Assembly (NCBI GenBank): GCA_010015805.1
Contig: ML978121.1
Location: 62,001 to 126,000, forward strand
Length of the DNA: 64,000 nt
Direction of reading: 5' to 3'
From: Rhizodiscina lignyota
Lineage: Eukaryota
Part shown: positions 45,026-57,505 of the stretch, piece after piece
Layout: every line of letters starts with the position of its first letter
How positions within the stretch are numbered: position 1 is the stretch's first letter
The notes under the pieces: model-generated
Told to the model about the DNA's origin: nothing
The model's input: only the letters and a program-made list of their open reading frames with translations
Databases searched by the model: none
Made by a program: the position numbers and the translations under genes

Positions 45026-46510
45026 AAGAAGCTTTTCAGCACAGAGAATGGTCATTTCGGCCTCGGACCCAGATTATTCGAGGAAACATCACTGTTGTAT
45101 TTTTGGAAGCTCCAATTCTCTTTTTGAAAGGGTCAACCAGAACGACAAGTTTGGTGGAGCGAAGCATCGTCTGCCCACGGAAATGAAATCATATTTGGAG
45201 GCCATGGACGATTGTACCGATGAATCCTTTCACTAGTTCATATAGATAGCCATTCTTGCTTCTTTCTTGTTAGTACTTCCGAGTTCGAAATATGAATTGG
45301 TGAACAGGGGATCTGCAACTATCCGAATCCAGAGATCTGGGTCCTACTTGTCGTACTGCGTCTCCCCAGCCACCATCCCAACCCCTTGAGCCGTACTTCA
45401 TTCGGCCAGCCTGCCAATCCCTTAAATCAGCCGAAGCCCTGTATTCTTTATTCCCCAGCGCCCTCTAATGACTATGCACTTCTGACCAGCGACTTCCACT
45501 TGCCTGGGGGCAGTGTGATTCTGTTTCGAGAACGACATCAAGGACGCAAACCACCAAGAGCAGGGACAGATCTTCGGTCGCGGCAAATACAGTGAGCCAG
45601 TTCCTGTACGAGTCCAGGACCCTGTGCTAACTCAAAGGTCAGCTCGACAAAGAGCAGAGATTGAGCACGAGAATTGCATTCGGGAAGCGCTGAGGCAGCA
45701 AATCACCTCCATCGCAACACGCCACTCAGCCCTGCGAGACGACGAATATCTGTGTCCCAAACATGCCTATGGTTTTGGAGTATACGTTGCCGGAGCATGC
45801 TCAACCAGCGTTTACACACCGTGTCCGCGAGAATGCGTGTATGTTAATCAAGAATATGGTACGTTGGTCAAAATCTGTGAGACAACTGCTCTTCTGAGTC
45901 GGATTCCAATGAATGGAGATGAAAAGCTTCTGCCCGTGGGAGGTGCAGCTTCATCTGATGTCTGAAGGTGTCTCCCATCCCATGTCCGTGGCTCGTGTCG
46001 GAGCTTTGCACGATCTGCAGCCAGGGTTCATATCTCTGACCAGGGCCTGCAGATGCCCAACGCCGTGGGATATTACCCCTTGCGCTTTCCTTAATCGAGC
46101 AATTCAGCTACCTCGGCCTCGGCCTACGGGCCCATGAGGTGATTCATTTCTAGATTGACAAGACTGCTCTCGAGATTGCCAGTGTCTGCTCTGGATTAAC
46201 CACCTCTTCAAATGTGCGTTTGATGATTTTCAAATCCCAGCTGTCAGAAGGTGTTTATGCAGCACCTTTTGGGTTGATGACGCCGCTGGTGCTATCTCCC
46301 CAGAGGGCATATTAGCATTTCTCCTCACTTCTTGATTGTTCTCTTTCAATCAACTCGTTCGGAATACCCTCTGAGTCTTCGCCACTGAGTGCTCAACACC
46401 CAACGACGCAAACCGAATCTCGAAGGAGCAAATTACCCCCAAATCTCGAAGAAGCGAGCCGTATCTTGAGAGACCAGAGTACCTCCCCTACGCCGAATTA
46501 CATCGCAGTC

Positions 46511-47017
46511 ATGCCGTACATTTTCGAGATCTATGTCGATGGTGGCCGCAGAAGAAACGGCCAGGACGACGCCTTTGGAGCAGCTGCAGTCGTCTTCAAA
46601 AGGAGGAACAGAAGCGACCAAGTTTGGTGGAGGGAGATTCCCAATTTTCTGTACCAACCCGTGCCAACGAACCAGCGAGCCGAACTCACGGCGGCCATTA
46701 TGGCCCTGGAAATCGTCCTTGAAAAGTACGATGCCCTGCGAGGGACTCCGTGGATCAATGTCACAATCTACACAGATTCGCACTACGTAGTCGGGTGCAT
46801 GACGAAGTGGATACACAAGTGGCAGAACAACGGTTGGATCAATGCTGCGGGCCGGGACGTTGCGAACCGCGACCTCATCGAGGAGGCTGCTGAGCTTGAC
46901 GCCCGTGTTTGCGCGGAGGGGAATCTAACTTACACTTGGATACCGAGAGCGGAGAATTCCATCGCCGATAAGTACTGCAATGACTGTTTAGATCAACAGG
47001 AGGATGAGCGATACTGA
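46511..47017 (+). CDS. Short RNase HI-like protein (catalytic domain only)
   Basis: YVDGG, TNQRAE, YTDSHY, ANRDL and WIPRAENSIAD: the D-E-D-D residues are present. There is no N-terminal hybrid-binding domain. Confidence 0.9.
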   Translation: MPYIFEIYVDGGRRRNGQDDAFGAAAVVFKRRNRSDQVWWREIPNFLYQPVPTNQRAELTAAIMALEIVLEKYDALRGTPWINVTIYTDSHYVVGCMTKWIHKWQNNGWINAAGRDVANRDLIEEAAELDARVCAEGNLTYTWIPRAENSIADKYCNDCLDQQEDERY

Positions 47018-47585
47018 TAGTGAGGTGACTGGTGGTGAGGTCGAGTGGCACATATACCTTCCATTATAGCGTGCCAAACGTGCCTGGAGGAAGCAGCAGT
47101 TATTATGCCAAAGGTTTGAGTGTCGTATTTGACAGAGGTTCCACGGGAAGTGTCCCAGGTAGCCAACGAGTGGTACACGGACAAGTGGCTCCACCTGCGG
47201 AATTCGGTGTTGGGGATTGCACGGATTTCATGTTGCATGGCAACTGAGGGGGATATTGAGTATCGGAAACGAACAACCATATCATGACTCCTATACAGGA
47301 CTACAATTGTGCATTAACAGGCACGGTGATGCGTGAAAACAAAAATTCAGCACGATCAAATAAGCAAGAAGTTGTAAGAGACAAGCCTGCTGAATTCATG
47401 TCTATAAGCCGGGTACTACTAACCCACTAGAATTACACAAAGAGAGACAAGAGCCGGCAACTCATGTCCCAATGCCATTTCTACGATCATGAGGGTATAG
47501 GTCCAATTTGTGTACGCCCTGTATGTGCAATGCCCAAGAAACAAGAAGCATTATGTGATCACCGTCGATCCCTTTACATCACGAT

Positions 47586-48971
47586 CTAGAGGAAGTAGCC
47601 GAACAGGCCCAAGATGGCGATCGCACCCGTACCAATCTCAGCGTGGCGGTTGGCAGCGCCGGTGAAGGCACTAACAGGGGCGCTGGAGCTTGGAGTCTTT
47701 GGCGTGGAGACAGCACCGGTGCCAGCGGCAGCGGTAGTCATCGTAGAGTTGGAACCAAAGCCGGAGCCTGAGCCTGAGCCTGAAGATCCGGAGCCGGAGC
47801 TGGAGCTAGAGCTTCCAGTCGGGCTGGCAGATCCGGAGCCAGAGCCGGAGGAGCCGGAGCCACTTCCGCCCTTGGTTGACTTGCCGGAAGCAGTGGCCGA
47901 AGCAGAGGAGCCAGAAGTCTTGGAGGAAGCACTAGAGGTCTTGGATGCAGAAGCAGAAGACGAGGAGCTCGAAGTGGTATTGTCGCAGGAGAGATCAAAA
48001 AGCGGCTTGTTGCTGACGGAATCACCGAGGATACCGAATGCTGGGCTGGCGCCGGCATCGCTGAGAGTGTACCACCAGGTGTTGGTCTTGCCGAACAAAG
48101 CGCAGCCAACCTTCTTCCAGTACTTCTCGGCGTTCTCGACGCTGGCAACGGCGAGGTTGGACTTGGGACCAGTGTATGGCCAGCCAGTCTCGGTGACCCA
48201 CACAGGCTTACCGGCACCAGCTGTCTGGGTCTGGTCGAAGGCAGACCAGAAGAGGTCAGCAGCGTCGTCGATGCTGTTGCTCTCGGTAGTCTGGTAGTAC
48301 GGGTAGGCGTCCATGCCGAGGAAGTCGCAGTTGTCAATGACAGCCTGGTTGCTGCCGTTGATGTAGGAGGTGTAAGTGTCGACGTGGCCGACGGGCTTGT
48401 CGCCAAGAGGAGTGCCCTTGATGGTGCTACGGACCTGCTTGATGTAGGAGACGAGCGTGTCGGGAGCGGCACCCGGGTTGGGGTCCTTGTTGACGACTTG
48501 GGAGGTGTAGGTGATGCGATAGAGATCCTCAGAGCCAATCGAGATACCGATGACTGTGTCAGCGAAGTCCTGGCCGTACTGCTGGATGGCGCTCTTCAGG
48601 GCAGCGATCTCGTTGTCGAACGCAGCCTGGCCAGCCGAAGCCCAGAGACCGAGGAGAAGCGTGCCCTTGGAGGCAATAGCTGCGGGAATGGCGCTGATGG
48701 GGGTGTTGGTGGTGCCGTCCTGAATCATGGTGTAGAGACGCGCGGAGTTGAAGCCAGATGCACCAGGCAGGCTCTTGGAAGCGTCGATATCAGCTTCAAA
48801 GACGTCCTGAGTGCCACCGTCTGCGTTCCGCCAGTGTTAGTGAAACAAAGAAGGGATCCGAGCATCGGCATTCCGTAGTGGCTACTCACTGGAAGCGTAG
48901 TTGAAGCCCTGCGCCGTGGCAGCAACGCACGAGGCGGAGGCCGCGAGGGCCAGGAAAGACTTTGCAAGCAT
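47586..48971 (-). CDS. eglC: GPI-anchored GH17 beta-1,3-endoglucanase (EglC-like); intron 48821-48888
   Basis: Signal peptide plus [40 protein letters not shown] and WVTETGWP; Ser/Gly linker and hydrophobic GPI tail. Confidence 0.9.
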
Positions 48972-49713
48972 CTCGACCAAAGCTCAATCTATAATCAAAA
49001 GAGGGTAAGAAGTATGTTGACTCGACTGTGAGTCGAAAAGCGAGAGACTGACGGGAATTAATTAAAAGGGTACAAAGAAAGGCCGGATAGGCAAGTCGTC
49101 GTGCTGGTGAGGTGTGAGGTGAGGTGAAGAGAAGAAGAAGCGAGCGAGCAGCTCAGTGCCAAAAGGCTTGCAAGCGCGTTGTGCCCGTGCGGCACCGCGG
49201 ACCCACAAACAATAGAACTCGTCATTGGCTAAGCCCGTTCCGTGCGACTGAGGCCCGCGGCGCATTGCTGATTCGGCGGGTTGACGAGTGGCTGCGAGCA
49301 TTCTTCCAAGGCCGGTCCCAAACAAAGGCGGGCTGTGCTGCCGCTGCCCCTATTCCGTGCTCTAGCGCGTCACGCCGCGCCGTACCTGCAGCCTTCGAGA
49401 AGGCGCATCCCTTCCATTGGAATCCCGCGCTGGAGACGCAATCACGGCGAGTTGGCACACGTCAAGCCATCCTCACATCTTGCCTCCGACATCCGGCGCC
49501 GCGCACCTCTTGAAGGCAGTACGCTCGCTGGTGTCGCGGCCCGTTGCGCGCTCGTCTGCTGCAATTCAGCCAGTCGACGATGGAGGCTGGTGCTCATGAG
49601 CAGCCACCTTAGATCGCCTGCTGCCATTCAACTCTCGCCGCTATTGTCTCTTTATGAACACCTCGAGCGCCTCAGGTTGCGTCTTCGAGCTCCTCCATTC
49701 ATATCTGTCCTTA

Positions 49714-50367
49714 CTACATCCGAAGTATTCTTGCCACATCCTCTGGCAGATTGAATGGCCTCTCCACCGGTAACAGCCCTAATGCTTCGATTTCCTCATT
49801 CGTCATCCCAGCATCGACAATCTCCTTGTGTTTTCGTGCGAGTTCAGTCACATCCTCAATCTCCGCGATCCGTTCCTTCACCCACTCCTCACAATCATGT
49901 CTGGAGATGCCGATCTGGATACTCCGGTGTTCTAGCTTCCCAATCCGATTTGAGCGCTCTGGATCCCACTGAACCACAACAGTCGACTCATTCTTTGCAT
50001 TGTCATTCTTTGCTTCTCCGCCTTGCAAGCCCGCCTTTTCTTTTCCTCCTGTACCCGGCTCGTGATGTTCGTTGACCCTCGCCTTTCGCAGAAGCTTGAT
50101 GAAATTCTCAGGCTTCATCTTAATTGCGAGGATGCGCGATTGCCGCTTGTCTTTGAAGGAGAAGCCGCTGCGGTACATCATCCAGTTCCACGATGGCTTG
50201 ATCCATGTCATTCGACCCAGGCTGAAGTCTGAAGATGCATCCAGCTTCTGCTCTCGGACTGCAGCTGTCGCGATAGATTCCGAGTAGGCTTGGTAGACTG
50301 TTATTCTTGCTTCATCGTGCAGAGCGCGGATCTGTCTATATGGAGTTGGTGCCGCCGACTTGGCCAT
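49714..50367 (-). CDS. DUF4291-family protein
   Basis: QIRA...ITVYQAY, RMTWIKPS.WMMYRSG, VQWDPER and RSIQIG motifs. Confidence 0.85.
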   Translation of the reverse strand: MAKSAAPTPYRQIRALHDEARITVYQAYSESIATAAVREQKLDASSDFSLGRMTWIKPSWNWMMYRSGFSFKDKRQSRILAIKMKPENFIKLLRKARVNEHHEPGTGGKEKAGLQGGEAKNDNAKNESTVVVQWDPERSNRIGKLEHRSIQIGISRHDCEEWVKERIAEIEDVTELARKHKEIVDAGMTNEEIEALGLLPVERPFNLPEDVARILRM

Positions 50368-50694
50368 TATGCTGATATTTCTTCAACGAGGACTTCTTGG
50401 AAACGTTCTTTATCAGGTAGAATTAAAACAGAGTTCTTGTTATTGCATTCAAAATGAACGATAGCCCTCTGCTTTAAAGGAGTTATCACGACTGAGTCAA
50501 AGAGTTCACAGCCACATAGCCAATAGCGCCACATCCGGTGTCCCTTCCAAGGCTAGCGACAATTTCTCTTGCGCTACACTCTGACGTTTCTTGAATACAG
50601 GCTCACAGGACAAAAGCTTTGCTAGCCAGAAGTTTCTGTGCGGAAGTTCAATGGAGATTGAAGACTTGAGGGAGGCCTCGCTAAAGCCAGGCAA

Positions 50695-50756
50695 TGCACG
50701 CGACGAAACGGATCTCAGCCCACTCCACGGTCCAACTACGAGCTTTTTAACTGCAA
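50695..50756 (-). pseudogene. Short 18S rDNA-derived segment (entry to V4), paralogous to 56019-56082
   Basis: Sense strand reads ttgcagttaaaaagctcgtagttggaccgtggagtgggctga. It contains the universal aaaaagctcgtagttg motif and shares the non-canonical ggagtgggctga with the 56-kb copy. Confidence 0.8.
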
Positions 50757-50981
50757 GATTGAGGAGCAATTAGCGTAGGCTCTCTATTCGTTGGTCTCGC
50801 TCTACAATATGGGCATTCTTGAGAAATTCCAAAAATTGGATTTTGAGTGTGTGAGTTTCTTGCGTTGGAGCCTTGGCAAAGCCCAACCGGTTCTTGAATC
50901 AAGCCTGCAATTCCAAGTGCGGCCGCGCCTGGAAGAGGCTCGCAGCCTCGTCAACCTCTATGTCTAGATTTGGTGGAGCAG

Positions 50982-53863
50982 ATGCGTCTCGCAGTTCCCC
51001 GATCTGAGGAGGATTTGGGCGTGAACACTGCCGTTGAGTTGACTTCCAACTCTGTGCATCAGTACTCGCGCGCTCAGCTTGAGCGGGGGGAGAAAGCTCG
51101 CCAGCTGGTTGACGAACAGAATCAAGAGAAGGCAGCTGTGGGTGACAACAAGAAGAACACAGACGTCACAATCTCTGAAGATCTAGGCGACGGCCAAGCT
51201 AACAAACTAGACGCCTCCCTCAAGCTCCTCAGCGAAAAGGATCCCAGGCTGGTCCTTCCTTCCGACCCTCTTGATGACGACGAGATCCACATTATCGAAA
51301 CGACCTTGGCCGCACCAGGAGCTGGTGGGAATCACGCGTTGCAGGACTATCAAAGGCAACTTATGCTACTTGAGCAACAGAACAAGAAGCGATTGGCGAT
51401 GGCACCTCGGAAGAGCCGGCGTCCACTGGCGCCTCTATTAGAACCGATCGCACCGTCCAACCACTTACCTGTGGAGACTTCAACAACTCTACAGGAGGGG
51501 GCAGGAAACGGACCAAGAGAACACCTTTATCAAGCTCCCGTTACTCTGGAGCAAAATCAAACGCGACACAAAATGGTTAAGCGGCGCGCAAGCGGGGACG
51601 TGAACCCTGCTACTAAAAAGTTGAAGGAAGGACAATTAACAGAATGTTCGCAGAACAAGCAGGAAAGCGTGGGAATTATCAATGACAGTGGCAACGGTAC
51701 AAATACAACTCCAACCCAGGCAACTGAGGTTTGTATTCCTTCGTTAGGCCAATCTGTAAAACATGCGTTTGCTAACACTGAGCAGCATAAATCACCGCAC
51801 CTGATTTTCCTCTACAATGTTGAGTGTTCAGACGACGAACGCGTACATCCCATACCAATCTCATTTGATGTCCCTAAACCGGGTGGGTGGGAACGGGATA
51901 CGCACGTTCTACGCCCACATCTTCATGGAGAGACTCCACTATTGGATCTGGCTGCTTTCATGGAAAATGAAAGAGATGACACCGCCTTCGTTGTCCTTAG
52001 AACTGTACAATGCTCTCAAGCATCCATTATGATGGCTTCTTCAGGAGAGACACTCGGATTCTCAGAGGCGATACTTTCCAAATCGAGGCTTCTGAAACAC
52101 GCCCTACGGGCAACTGTTACATGCTATTTTCAACCAGTTCCAGAGGAAAATATAGATGCGTCGTGGCAGAAACCCAAAGGCCCATCGGTATACGAGCAGA
52201 ATCGAATTCACCCGGCCAGTTTGGTCTTCTTCCACCATCGGCATCTGCTGGCATCGTGGAGTGCACAGCATGTGCAGTCGAAGCCACATGTAGATGCTCT
52301 CCTTCAGTATATCGATGATCACTACGGCCCAGATTTCTTAGAAGCAGAGTCAATATTCGAACAAGGAATTGTTACTCAAGCGCACATTATGAAACTCTAC
52401 AAGCCAAATGATCTCATTATTAGCGGTACTCACGGGAAGCCTGCAGCGTTTGTCCTTCAGGAATGGCCTACGTCATCCAGCGACGGTTGGATTTCGCTGA
52501 ATTGTTGGTCTTTTCAGACGGATGGCGGCGGGTTCGCTCGGAAAAGAAGCGTTCTCTCGATCCCACCTCTAGCCCATGAGACCAAGAAAATACGGGATCT
52601 GGTTGCATATCCCTTGCGATTTGCGGCTCCACAGCTGCGATCTTTGATTTTACAACGCGGACAAAAGCAATGGGAACTTCGCATGGCAACACAGATCACC
52701 TACAAGGGCTGGAATGTCGGCCGAGACCAATATTTCGTAAGTTACACGCAAACCTCACTCATCTGACCTTCCGCTGACTGCTCCGTTAGCCCGACGCCCG
52801 TTTCATGATAGACAATATGATATACCACAAGATGCATCCAAACGCTCTTGCATTCAGATTCGACAAGCCAACAGTGACACATGCCTTTGACAAGATGCCC
52901 GCGTATCTCAGTAAGGAACATGAACCGTCTGACGTCTGCTTTCTCCTTATGGCACCAGACATACATGGGTTTTATCTCAACGAAAAGAAATGGATCAAAC
53001 TCTATGTTGAATACATTGAGCCCGTAACCTGGAACAAGAAAGCTTTTGAGAGATTGGTTTTACCAGATCAGACTAAAGACCTTGTCCGAGCTCTGGTCAC
53101 CGTCCGTACATCCCAGAGGGGTGTGAAACAAGGCCTCGGCGTGGCAGGAAAAAGAACTGACATCACTAATGGTAAAGGCAACGGCCTCATTATGCTTCTA
53201 CATGGCGGTCCTGGAACTGGAAAAACTTTGACGGCTGAAAGCGTGGCGGAGATTGCAGAGATGCCACTTTATCGAGTGACCTGCGGTGACATTGGGACGA
53301 ATGCCGAAGCTGTTGAGCAGTATCTCAACACCGTGCTGCACCTTGGGAACGCTTGGAACTGCGTGCTTCTCTTGGATGAAGCAGATGTTTTCCTTGAAGA
53401 GCGATCCATGGCCGACCTGAAGAGGAACAGTCTTGTTTCCGTCTTCCTTCGCATCCTGGAGTATTACGATGGGATCCTTATCCTGACAAGCAATCGCGTC
53501 GGTATGTTTGACGAAGCCTTCAAGTCCCGAATCCAAGTAGCACTCCATTACGAGAACTTGAATCGCTCTGCCCGCAAAAAGATTTGGCAGAACTTCCTCG
53601 ACATGTTAGAGGAGGACGACGAGAATGTCAACTTTGACGAAATCAAATTATTCCTCGACGATCTTGCTGGGAGAGAGTTGAATGGTCGCCAAATCCGCAA
53701 CGTCCTTACGACTGCCAGACAGCTAGCCATATACAGAGAAGAACGTTTAGACCGGAAGCACCTTGAGCAGGCACTTGCAGTGTCATCCGACTTCAACGAT
53801 TACCTGAAGCGTATGCAGGGTCATACCGATGACCAGAGGGCCAGGGACATCGGCCTGAGATGA
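50982..53863 (+). CDS. Fungal AAA+ ATPase with a long N-terminal region; intron 52737-52789; start uncertain
   Basis: Walker A LHGGPGTGKTLTAE, Walker B LLLDEAD, FLRILEYYDG, LTSNR, DEAFKSRI and LNGRQIRN. Confidence 0.9.
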
Positions 53864-53946
53864 GGTGTGCAAAGATTCACGATGGCCTTGAACCTGGGAA
53901 CCGAAGGTATTAAGCTGATTTGGTTCTTTCGAACGATCGCGCGAGT

Positions 53947-55861
53947 TCAGCCTTTGCGGAAGCGCTGTGGTGGACGCCGTTGCTTCCGAGGCCTTCTCCA
54001 ATCCGTGGTATTGTTCGTCTGGATCTTGACGCACATGCTTGATCTCTGAAGTTCTTCAGCATATGCTCGACTGACGCTCGATGTCGCCGTCACAATTTTT
54101 GCACTGTGCGAAAGCTCGAGTCGAAGCATATCCATCAGCTCCAGTGCCTCACTGCGATCGTATGCCGTCGCATGTGCCAAGAGGTCTGCGTCCAGAACGA
54201 TAAATGCGGAGCTGATGCTGGTGAGCATGCGCCCCAGGATGGCAACCCATTGCTGTAAACCTGCTGCTTCTCGAAGTTGTTCCACGGTTATCGGAAAGGG
54301 ACTGTCAAGGAGGTTGCCGGCTCCGACTTGCATTGCCTGAAGCGTCAACATACGAACAATATCCGTTGCTCTCAGGCGTTGAGACCAGTATTCCTCATAT
54401 CGCAGAGCCCAAATGATCTGCATGCGGTTCGTTTGGACAAGATCGATCAGGTCGACCATGAAAGCCTTTGCTACCGCTGGAATGTAAGTGTCGATGAGAA
54501 GCAGCGGACTGCTTTTCTGTAAGCTCCATGCATTGAGCTTCTCAACCTCTGGTAGTTGTAGTCTCATAGGTGCGCGATGTCTGTTGCGCATGGATCGGCA
54601 GAATTGTAAACTCTCCCCCGACGTCGGCAGCGAGTTCCACATGGGCAGAGACAGCATTTGATTGAGATGGACTCGATTCAAAGTCGTCCGCTGGGAGGTG
54701 AGATCAAGCCGAATTTCTTTCAACATACCTTTGTACAGTCAGTAGCTAGCCTTTAGGTTGTAAGAGTGCTCTCACAGATCATAGAGTCCTCCATTGTACC
54801 GAATTTCATCTGGAATAAGCTCGCCAGATGCTGGCTCTCCACCTTCAGCTCGTTCATCTCTTTCCTTACTAGCTCCAAATTCTTCGTACCCTGCAAGACC
54901 TCCAATCTTGTGTCGCGGACTTCTACGTTTAGCGCTACTTCCGCAAGGCGTCTTACCTGCTGCGTCTCAGCTGCAATGGCTTCGTATTGAGTCCGGAACT
55001 TCATGTCCCATGGCTGGAGGATTGACTTGATGGCGTGTACTAAACGGCTGTCTTTGTACCACTTCAGCGCGGAGACGAAGAAGATCAGGATGTGCGCATA
55101 GAGCCGGGCCACGGAGGTCTGCATTTGAGCCGTTGGGTATAGAACTAAAAGTAATGATTGCTGCGGAAGAAGGTCGGCGACTTGGGAAACAGATTTGCTC
55201 AGCTTAGAGGCGCTCTCCGCATGGTTTGCGATAGCCTCCAGAATCTTAGTGATAGAGTATCAACGCTGCGGGTATGCAACTCACGACAAAGAGAAGTTTG
55301 AATGTGCCCCATGCCAACGAGACGTACTCGGGATGTTGCTGTACTAGCACGTCGAAAATATTACCGTAATAGAGAATTTTTTCTGACAAGCCAGTCAACC
55401 ACATGCGTGCTTTGGCCTGAGCCTTGCTCAACGGTGTATCGTGGTGGGCCAATCCGCCCGCCTCAGTCGTGGGTGCGACGCCCTGGAATCTGTCTGTGGA
55501 ACATCCGGTCCGACCTTCGTATGTGATTCGAGCTTCTTGAAGACACTTTTGGACGTCTGATATGGAATGATTCGAAACACCATGTTCTGAACTGGATGGA
55601 AATAGGGTTTCAAAGTCCTGAGGCTTGACTGCAGAGCGGAGCAGGAGCTTTGCATGCGAGAACGTCGTCGACAGAATCTCGCTCGAGCTGGACGTAGGCA
55701 TGTTAGCCGTGTCTCCGATGCGAATTTACATTACGGCAATCAAGAATTTAACCACCAAGATGATCAAAATTGTCTAGACCAAGGGGATTTGTCGCTTACC
55801 TTGACGAGGATTCCGAGTCGGAGTACCAGCCGGAGAGGTCAGCGCCAGGCACAGGATCCAT
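53947..55861 (-). CDS. Protein with a NACHT/NLR-associated N-terminal helical domain (DUF7708-like) and a degenerate NTPase-like C-terminal part; introns 55688-55799, 55236-55284 and 54729-54775
   Basis: YYGNIFDVLVQQHPEYVSLAWGTFKLLF, LYPT.QMQ..VARLYAHIL.F and FIVLDAD. No intact Walker A was seen. The three introns join in frame from MDPVPGADLSGWY. Confidence 0.75.
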
Positions 55862-56002: not shown

Positions 56003-56565
56003 AGTGTGGCGGAGCATATGCACGCGGTGAGGCGGACCGGTCAGCCCACTCCAAGGTTCAACTACGAGCTTTTTCACGGCAACAACTTTAATATACGCTA
56101 TTGGAGCTGGAATTACCGCGGCTGCTGGCACCAGACTTGCCCTCCAATTGTTCCTCGTTAAGGGATTTAAATTGTACTCATTCCAATTACAAGACCCTAA
56201 AGAGCCCTGTATCAGTATTTATTGTCACTACCTCCCCGTGTCGGGATTGGGTAATTTGCGCGCCTGCTGCCTTCCTTGGATGTGGTAGCCATTTCTCAGG
56301 CTCCCTCTCCGGAATCGAACCCTGTGAATGTAAGTTAGCTTGGAGGCCTTTTGATTTATACGAAAATGAGTTTAAACGTACCTAATTCCCCGTTACCCGT
56401 TGAAACCATTGTACTCCACTATAGTACAATCGAAAGTTGATAGGGCAGAAATTTGAATGAACCATCGCCGGCACAAGGCTATGCGATTTGTTTAATTATT
56501 ATGAATCATCAAGGAGCCCCAAGGCATTAGCTTATCTATATTAAACACACCCGTCGACTTTAGCG
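56003..56565 (-). pseudogene. Dispersed 18S rDNA segment (5' domain to the start of V4), near-perfect in its core and containing an intron
   Basis: The sense strand has tttctgccctatcaactttcg, gagagggagcctgagaaa, aggaaggcagcaggcgcgcaaattacc and gtgccagcagccgcggtaattccagctccaatagcgtatattaaagttg. The flanks are non-rDNA. Confidence 0.95.
56322..56381 (-). other. Intact 60-nt spliceosomal intron within the 18S segment
   Basis: ggggaattag|GTACGT...GCTAACttacattcaCAG|ggttcgattcc. Excision exactly restores ggggaattagggttcgattcc. Confidence 0.9.
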
Positions 56566-57198
56566 TGGGCTTATAATCATTTCATGCCGTTTCTTTTGGA
56601 CTGTCGGTTACTCCTTGAATAGAAACCAGCGATTGAACGACTATATTCTTAGCCTCCGCATCCCTATAGTTTCCCACCCATACACTAGGCCCACGATAAC
56701 ACTAACCGCAATCCAGAGTGCTGTGGGGATGTCCGCGCCACTCTGTTTCATCTTCGCAAACGCACGATCGAGCCCCTCTCCTTACGTTCGATCTCGCTGT
56801 ACTTCTTCTGCGGAGTGCCGTGCAAGACCTTTGCGTTGCTCCATTTCATATTTGCAAGCGTGTGATCGAGCCTTCTCTTCTTACGTTCAGCCTGCTGTAC
56901 AATGTCTGCGGAGCAATGAAGGCCACCCAGTAACGTTGAGGGTAAATTGCAATACTGCATGGCTGGTCGTTATCGGAACACAGATGGCGATTTGTAGTTG
57001 CAACGAATTCCAACCGCATCTCCTCCGTCCATTACTACTTTGAGATCGATTCTTGAGACATAAATTTGGCATGTGGCAGGGGAGTGCGGTGAGTCCTCAA
57101 GGACGTCGAATGCGTATCGATACAAAGTACAAGACGAAAGAAAAGCACTGCATGATTCCCCGGATCGCTAAGAGCTCGAAGTCAAAGGACAGAATTGG

Positions 57199-57270: not shown

Positions 57271-57315
57271 CAAAGAGTAATAGAGGGAGCTTTGTAGAGA
57301 TCCCTCGCTGACTGG

Positions 57316-57505
57316 CTCAGCGAATTCCGACTTCCATGGCCACCATCCTGTAAAATTGTTAGCAAATAGAATAATTGAAGTGAATTGAAGGGGGACTTTC
57401 CTCAGGCTTCACGATCGCATGAAATAAAGGTTACTTACTCTTTCGAGCCCCAACAGCTATGCTCTTACTCAAAACCCTCCGAAGATATCAGAGTGGTGAC
57501 GATCG
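57316..57505 (-). pseudogene. Mosaic 28S rDNA relic: two non-adjacent LSU pieces joined across an intron-like segment
   Basis: Sense tttgagtaagagcatagctgttggggctcgaaaga (canonical ...gttgggacccgaaaga) and gatggtggccatggaagtcggaattcgctgag (canonical gacggtggccatggaagtcggaatccgctaag). Confidence 0.85.
57348..57438 (-). other. 91-nt spliceosomal intron-like segment within the 28S relic
   Basis: gaaaga|GTAAGT...GCTAACaattttaCAG|gatggtggcc. It internally retains gtgaagcctgaggaaa (canonical LSU gtgaagccagaggaaa). Confidence 0.75.

Follow-up and report, generated by a model that had tools for sequence, protein, structure and literature searches.

Ribosomal RNA pseudogenes of ascomycetes are marked, in the accessible part of PMC5555474, by C>T/G>A changes that hit paired regions too, and transversions are rare in them. 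As portrayed in that part, they are mostly near-complete repeats with heavy RIP, at average rates of 17-24%. Spliceosomal introns are known in ascomycete nuclear rDNA from excerpts of PMC8527467 and PMC11889510, and the available section of PMC1299323 cites a catalogue of rDNA spliceosomal intron positions. The locus presented here is a dispersed 18S fragment of about 570 nt on the minus strand, with one 60-nt spliceosomal-type intron inside. It lies in a window of 64 kb, the whole stretch of DNA that was analysed, which corresponds to positions 62001-126000 of contig C1 in a host assembly of 33.4 Mb and 33 contigs. The fragment has the following features:

56003..56570, minus strand: truncated 18S rDNA 5'-domain fragment with the V4 entry at its end (Rfam RF01960)
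56322..56381, minus strand: 60-nt spliceosomal-type intron at a site between AG and G (GTACGT start, GCTAAC branch motif, CAG end)
56408..56430, minus strand: hairpin with compensated transversions (RF01960 helix, fold, alignment to JAABUM010009053.1)
56044..56050, minus strand: variant of the V4-entry 5' arm, common to two other dispersed scraps
56003..56010, minus strand: V4-entry 3' arm, an imperfect partner at the fragment end, not retained in the other scraps

The Rfam model RF01960 matched 56699-56100 on the minus strand with 317.5 bits against a gathering threshold of 50, which places the fragment in the SSU family, the only Rfam RNA family in the 64-kb window. The match covers model positions 34-595 of 1831. 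By eye, the 18S sequence continues beyond it into the V4 entry, to about 56003, and the 5' limit is fuzzy, at about 56550-56575. A single intact 18S served for comparison, the fungal JAABUM010009053.1, complete from the 5' end (574.9 bits). The alignment score of 56570-56480 against this sequence was reached by 0 of 1000 shuffles; for 56720-56570, 154 of 1000 shuffles scored equally, which is not significant. Per 40 columns the identity was 70% at 56546-56510 and 82-100% further down, with a core of 97-100% across 160 columns. The extension of the Rfam match to 56699 was rejected as 18S: 67 of 1000 shuffles equalled it in local alignment, 154 and 318 of 1000 in global alignment, and it overlaps a remnant of a protein gene:

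56620..57013, minus strand: decayed remnant of a protein-coding gene family between rDNA pieces, overlapping the weak 5' Rfam extension

The remnant has translated motifs in common with its relatives, plus stops and frameshifts, and its part 57013-56900 is 78-79% identical to stretches on contigs C15 and C4. The C15 relative is a long open frame; the one on C4 is truncated and followed by an A-rich run and, as judged by eye, by a tRNA-like remnant. Inside the remnant in the window, inspection by eye showed a pair of direct repeats at 56750-56900, imperfect and each about 55 nt long.

A functional 18S gene was not found in the window: the 18S sequence is not full length, there is no other Rfam match, and protein genes lie on both sides. 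The flanking genes encode DUF7708, AAA ATPase, DUF4291 and acyltransferase proteins, the DUF7708 gene being located about 300 bp downstream of the fragment on the same strand. In a search among proteins of 215-686 aa, the best named matches of the acyltransferase were from Pezizomycotina (Cryomyces 68%, Elasticomyces 63%, Polycauliona 63%, Aureobasidium 61%). The block 46316-55725, about 110 kb from the start of C1, holds genes for RNase H, DUF4291, DUF7025 with AAA ATPase, and DUF7708. At the fragment ends no target-site duplication was found, the longest common word being 8 nt (equalled in 160 of 2000 shuffles), and no insertion footprint of any kind was detected. The truncation at both ends and the unrelated genes and gene remnants alongside support the reading as a dispersed copy.

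The insert at 56381-56322 appears to be a spliceosomal rDNA intron, with a GT donor, a CTRAC branch motif and a YAG acceptor, and its removal restores the rRNA register. All three signals were present in 7 of 200000 shuffles, and the Rfam alignment has a gap of 61 versus 1 at this place. The site is presumably near the catalogued position S297-300 of E. coli numbering. Bhattacharya et al. reportedly described spliceosomal introns in ascomycete nuclear rDNA in 2000 and 2003. Since the fragment retained its intron, the template was DNA or an unspliced precursor.

The first-pass annotation had claimed a perfect 8-bp stem at 56408-56430, and this was confirmed: in rRNA sense, that is on the minus strand (56430-56408), 8 Watson-Crick pairs enclose a 7-nt loop. 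This 8+7+8 stem, which we take to be h11, is unique within the 64-kb window and sits on the corresponding RF01960 helix. The three co-varying pairs proposed for it hold against the Rfam consensus, but only two of them against JAABUM010009053.1. These two are adjacent and changed on both sides, 56424/56414 from G-C to C-G and 56423/56415 from G-C to U-A, i.e., four transversions with the pairing kept. The third, G-C to U-A relative to the Rfam consensus, has the same state in JAABUM010009053.1 and so was already present in another fungus. In the host assembly the hairpin variant is single-copy. The metagenome collection yielded 0 matches to the exact hairpin and one to a relaxed pattern (JAABUM010009053.1), and the variant hairpin and V4 motifs were not found in the literature searched. 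A general pattern for the hairpin's helix gave one match each in the genome and viral contig collections, both by chance and not in rRNA; because it found no rRNA in these two collections, the rarity of the hairpin carries little weight.

For the V4 entry, the proposed strings were found at 56044-56050 and 56003-56010. Their pairing is feasible at -13.3 kcal/mol, but a shuffled 3' arm did equally well in 447 of 5000 cases. A free fold did not form this helix, which we regard as plausible. The V4 claim is based on position and on what we take to be the common ascomycete form. The 5' arm itself has four exact matches in the host genome, three of them next to 18S sequence, compared with one match of a control motif; the fourth, on contig C4, has no 18S context and was dismissed as chance. 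The variant follows the same 18S sequence at 56.0 kb and 50.7 kb of the window and on contig C6. Two further pieces of rDNA accompany the main fragment in the window:

50694..50756, minus strand: second 18S V4-entry scrap, more decayed, 83% identical to the main fragment
57315..57490, minus strand: probable LSU scrap, in which a 91-nt GT..GCTAAC..CAG insert (57438-57348) separates two LSU-like pieces, recognised by signals and a weak Rfam match

Each of the two 18S scraps of the window has a gene on its own strand some 300-330 bp downstream, which is probably a coincidence. The probable LSU scrap is located 750 bp upstream of the 18S fragment. Its part 57344-57322 matched RF02543 in 22 of 23 letters, but with E=2.1; the upstream piece, missed by Rfam, we take to be LSU. 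Its pieces seemingly derive from distant LSU parts, with a single insert as if two introns had been fused by deletion. On contig C23 an LSU scrap (locus positions 1300-1790, 112 bits) has an internal deletion of about 190 model positions and two spliceosomal-type introns of 53 and 54 nt (locus positions 1447-1499 and 1624-1677). The 18S V4 scrap on contig C6 (locus positions 1250-1545) adjoins a short LSU-like piece with a weak Rfam match (E=1.2); the two are joined in opposite orientation, the LSU piece resembling the 3' end and being seemingly strongly divergent. On contig C17 (locus positions 1314-2857) a stretch of 1.6 kb contains a U2 snRNA gene together with a U2 fragment, a match resembling U4, and a decayed scrap of the 18S 3' part. 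Judged by their splice and branch signals, the scraps would hold three clear rDNA introns of spliceosomal type, and probably a fourth.

An intact 18S was not found in the host assembly among 6 candidates, whose two matches were both scraps, and an intact LSU was not found among the 4 of 9 candidates scored, which gave one scrap (both with a stricter prefilter). A 5.8S was not found among the 39 of 1246 candidates scored, nor a second copy of the 18S 5' region in the host assembly. The host rDNA array is probably unassembled. Of 24 sequencing runs queried with 113 sampled words, one (X1) holds 0.76 of the words and the other 23 hold 0.17-0.20, by word content.

We consider it probable that the fragment is a dead copy, dispersed from 18S rDNA that belongs to the host itself, either of the present array or of a recent ancestral state. 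Three sources had been offered by the first-pass annotation, the host's own rDNA, a second rDNA type and a foreign donor; the host's array is the likeliest of them, given that two further dispersed scraps also have the V4 variant. Taken together, the evidence points to a single source that was divergent and contained introns, and the host's array, present or ancestral, is the most likely candidate. Several observations count against this assignment. The hairpin variant is single-copy, which leaves the V4 5' arm as the one variant with independent copies; a source other than the array could be common to the scraps; and no intact 18S, 5.8S or LSU match was found in the host assembly. The share of sampled words in X1 would also fit an array that differs from the copy. 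An alternative is an origin from a second, lost or foreign rDNA type, in which the scraps are fossils of an old paralogue, a hybrid parent or a horizontal donor, unlike today's array in helices and introns. In its favour, the array was not found in the assembly, X1 is without about a quarter of the sampled words, and the metagenome search returned 0 exact and 1 relaxed match of the hairpin. The scraps, however, are spread over four contigs (C1, C6, C17, C23) and differ in decay; a resident high-copy array that leaked repeatedly would account for this better than a single foreign event, and we judge such an origin unlikely. That the SSU and LSU scraps together are fossils of an rDNA type which was under structural selection, rich in spliceosomal introns and is gone from the present array, as a replaced paralogue or a foreign donor, is likewise quite unlikely; if it were true, the genome would preserve a whole-array turnover or an rDNA transfer.

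The compensated hairpin could also have been born in the dead copy by template switching, one arm being copied onto the other with no selection involved. The accessible part of PMC8794818 proposes that compensatory changes of several bases in RNA stems can arise by template switching, and in the fragment the two changed pairs are neighbours that face each other over a 7-nt loop, in a variant that is single-copy in the assembly. The same part of PMC8794818, however, terms the evidence for short stems circumstantial, and the mechanism would require that a young copy first acquired a double transversion and afterwards underwent a switch. It accounts neither for the V4 variant common to three scraps nor for the third hairpin pair in JAABUM010009053.1, and is very improbable.

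The distribution of changes over the helices argues for a source in a working rRNA. Of 80 pairs compared between the fragment and JAABUM010009053.1, 64 were the same and paired and 5 the same and unpaired; 4 were changed on both sides with the pairing kept, 3 changed on a single side and still paired, 3 broken by a one-sided change, and 1 was gapped. When 29 substitutions were placed at random over 328 columns, four double-changed pairs arose in 6 of 200000 trials and at least two double-changed Watson-Crick pairs in 2819 of 200000. The latter, 1.4%, is the fair chance figure, because two of the four double changes belong to JAABUM010009053.1 and not to the window: at these two pairs the window equals the Rfam consensus and JAABUM010009053.1 departs. 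The first-pass view that the paired changes are not random decay and stem from a structurally selected rRNA is supported by this figure. JAABUM010009053.1 has its two private compensated pairs in the helix adjoining the hairpin (locus positions 210-230); working fungal rDNAs thus carry private compensated sets.

The second layer of changes is of another kind. Pairs are broken at 56480, 56509 and 56541, and one hairpin has a deletion. Five changes in the window stand against an agreeing JAABUM010009053.1 and Rfam consensus (56291, 56480, 56495, 56509, 56529); all are C>T or G>A and lack compensation on the opposite strand, and the one at 56291 sits in a conserved loop. With 3 of 80 pairs broken, 1 gapped and a conserved loop base changed, the fragment shows the damage of an rRNA pseudogene. 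Two of the five polarised transitions are in CpA/TpG context; since the contexts are mixed, RIP is not established. The TpA/ApT ratio of 0.97 in the fragment's bin, compared with 0.61 in the window, is confounded by rRNA composition. We infer that fixation of the compensated layer took place while the rRNA was still working, and that the uncompensated layer arose after copying: since its insertion the copy has gained uncompensated changes, mostly C>T/G>A. Its truncation and damage suggest that it makes no functional rRNA.

Continuing structural selection on the copy, which the first-pass annotation had left as an option, is not supported, given the broken pairs, the changed conserved loop base and the truncation at both ends. 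The idea that the fragment is transcribed and that selection maintains its structure, whether for an RNA function or because it serves the DUF7708 gene as its 5' region, could appeal to the identity of 97-100% to JAABUM010009053.1 over 160 core columns and to the position about 300 bp upstream of that same-strand gene. High core identity is, however, expected for a young copy of a conserved gene, and the losses at 56480, 56509 and 56541, the hairpin deletion and the loop change make this reading scarcely credible. An assembly chimera of array reads joined into a unique contig would agree with the array missing from the assembly, but the private damaging changes in the copy and the differences of the scraps from one another are unlike a collapsed array, and the chance of it is negligible. 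The earlier interpretation of the helix changes is partly supported.

For a copy of the host's own rDNA, the course of events might be as follows. The compensated pairs would be traits of the lineage that became fixed beforehand, while the array was working. Pieces of this high-copy, divergent, intron-bearing array would have been captured at scattered sites and then have decayed. One piece of about 570 bp, intron included, would have been copied from rDNA or from unspliced pre-rRNA. Break repair probably placed it in an intergenic patch rich in junk sequence. In all likelihood this is an ordinary piece of an rDNA pseudogene in which traits of the lineage are visible. Both rRNA pseudogenes and rDNA spliceosomal introns have already been published for ascomycetes, and on this reading the find matters little in itself. 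It would show that the 18S of the host lineage is divergent and contains spliceosomal introns, and the scraps would give the only view of the host's unassembled rDNA; if the array lacked these variants, they would date an rDNA replacement or transfer. As a caution, compensated pairs in a pseudogene record the history of the source and not a present function.

The introns resemble those in the excerpts of PMC8527467 and PMC11889510 in their length of 50-60 nt, in their GT..CTRAC..YAG pattern and in their location within conserved regions of SSU and LSU, a Cladonia example there being 57 nt long. Unlike published ascomycete rDNA introns, those described here are seen only in dispersed dead copies and are known from sequence alone. 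The working 18S JAABUM010009053.1 has one of the three hairpin pairs in common with the fragment and two private compensated pairs in the next helix; it is intact from the 5' end, whereas the window copy is truncated and damaged. Like the pseudogenes in the accessible part of PMC5555474, the fragment is 18S sequence damaged by C>T/G>A changes, paired regions included. Unlike the pseudogenes portrayed in that part, it is short and solitary, with light damage in mixed contexts and with compensated pairs that look inherited.
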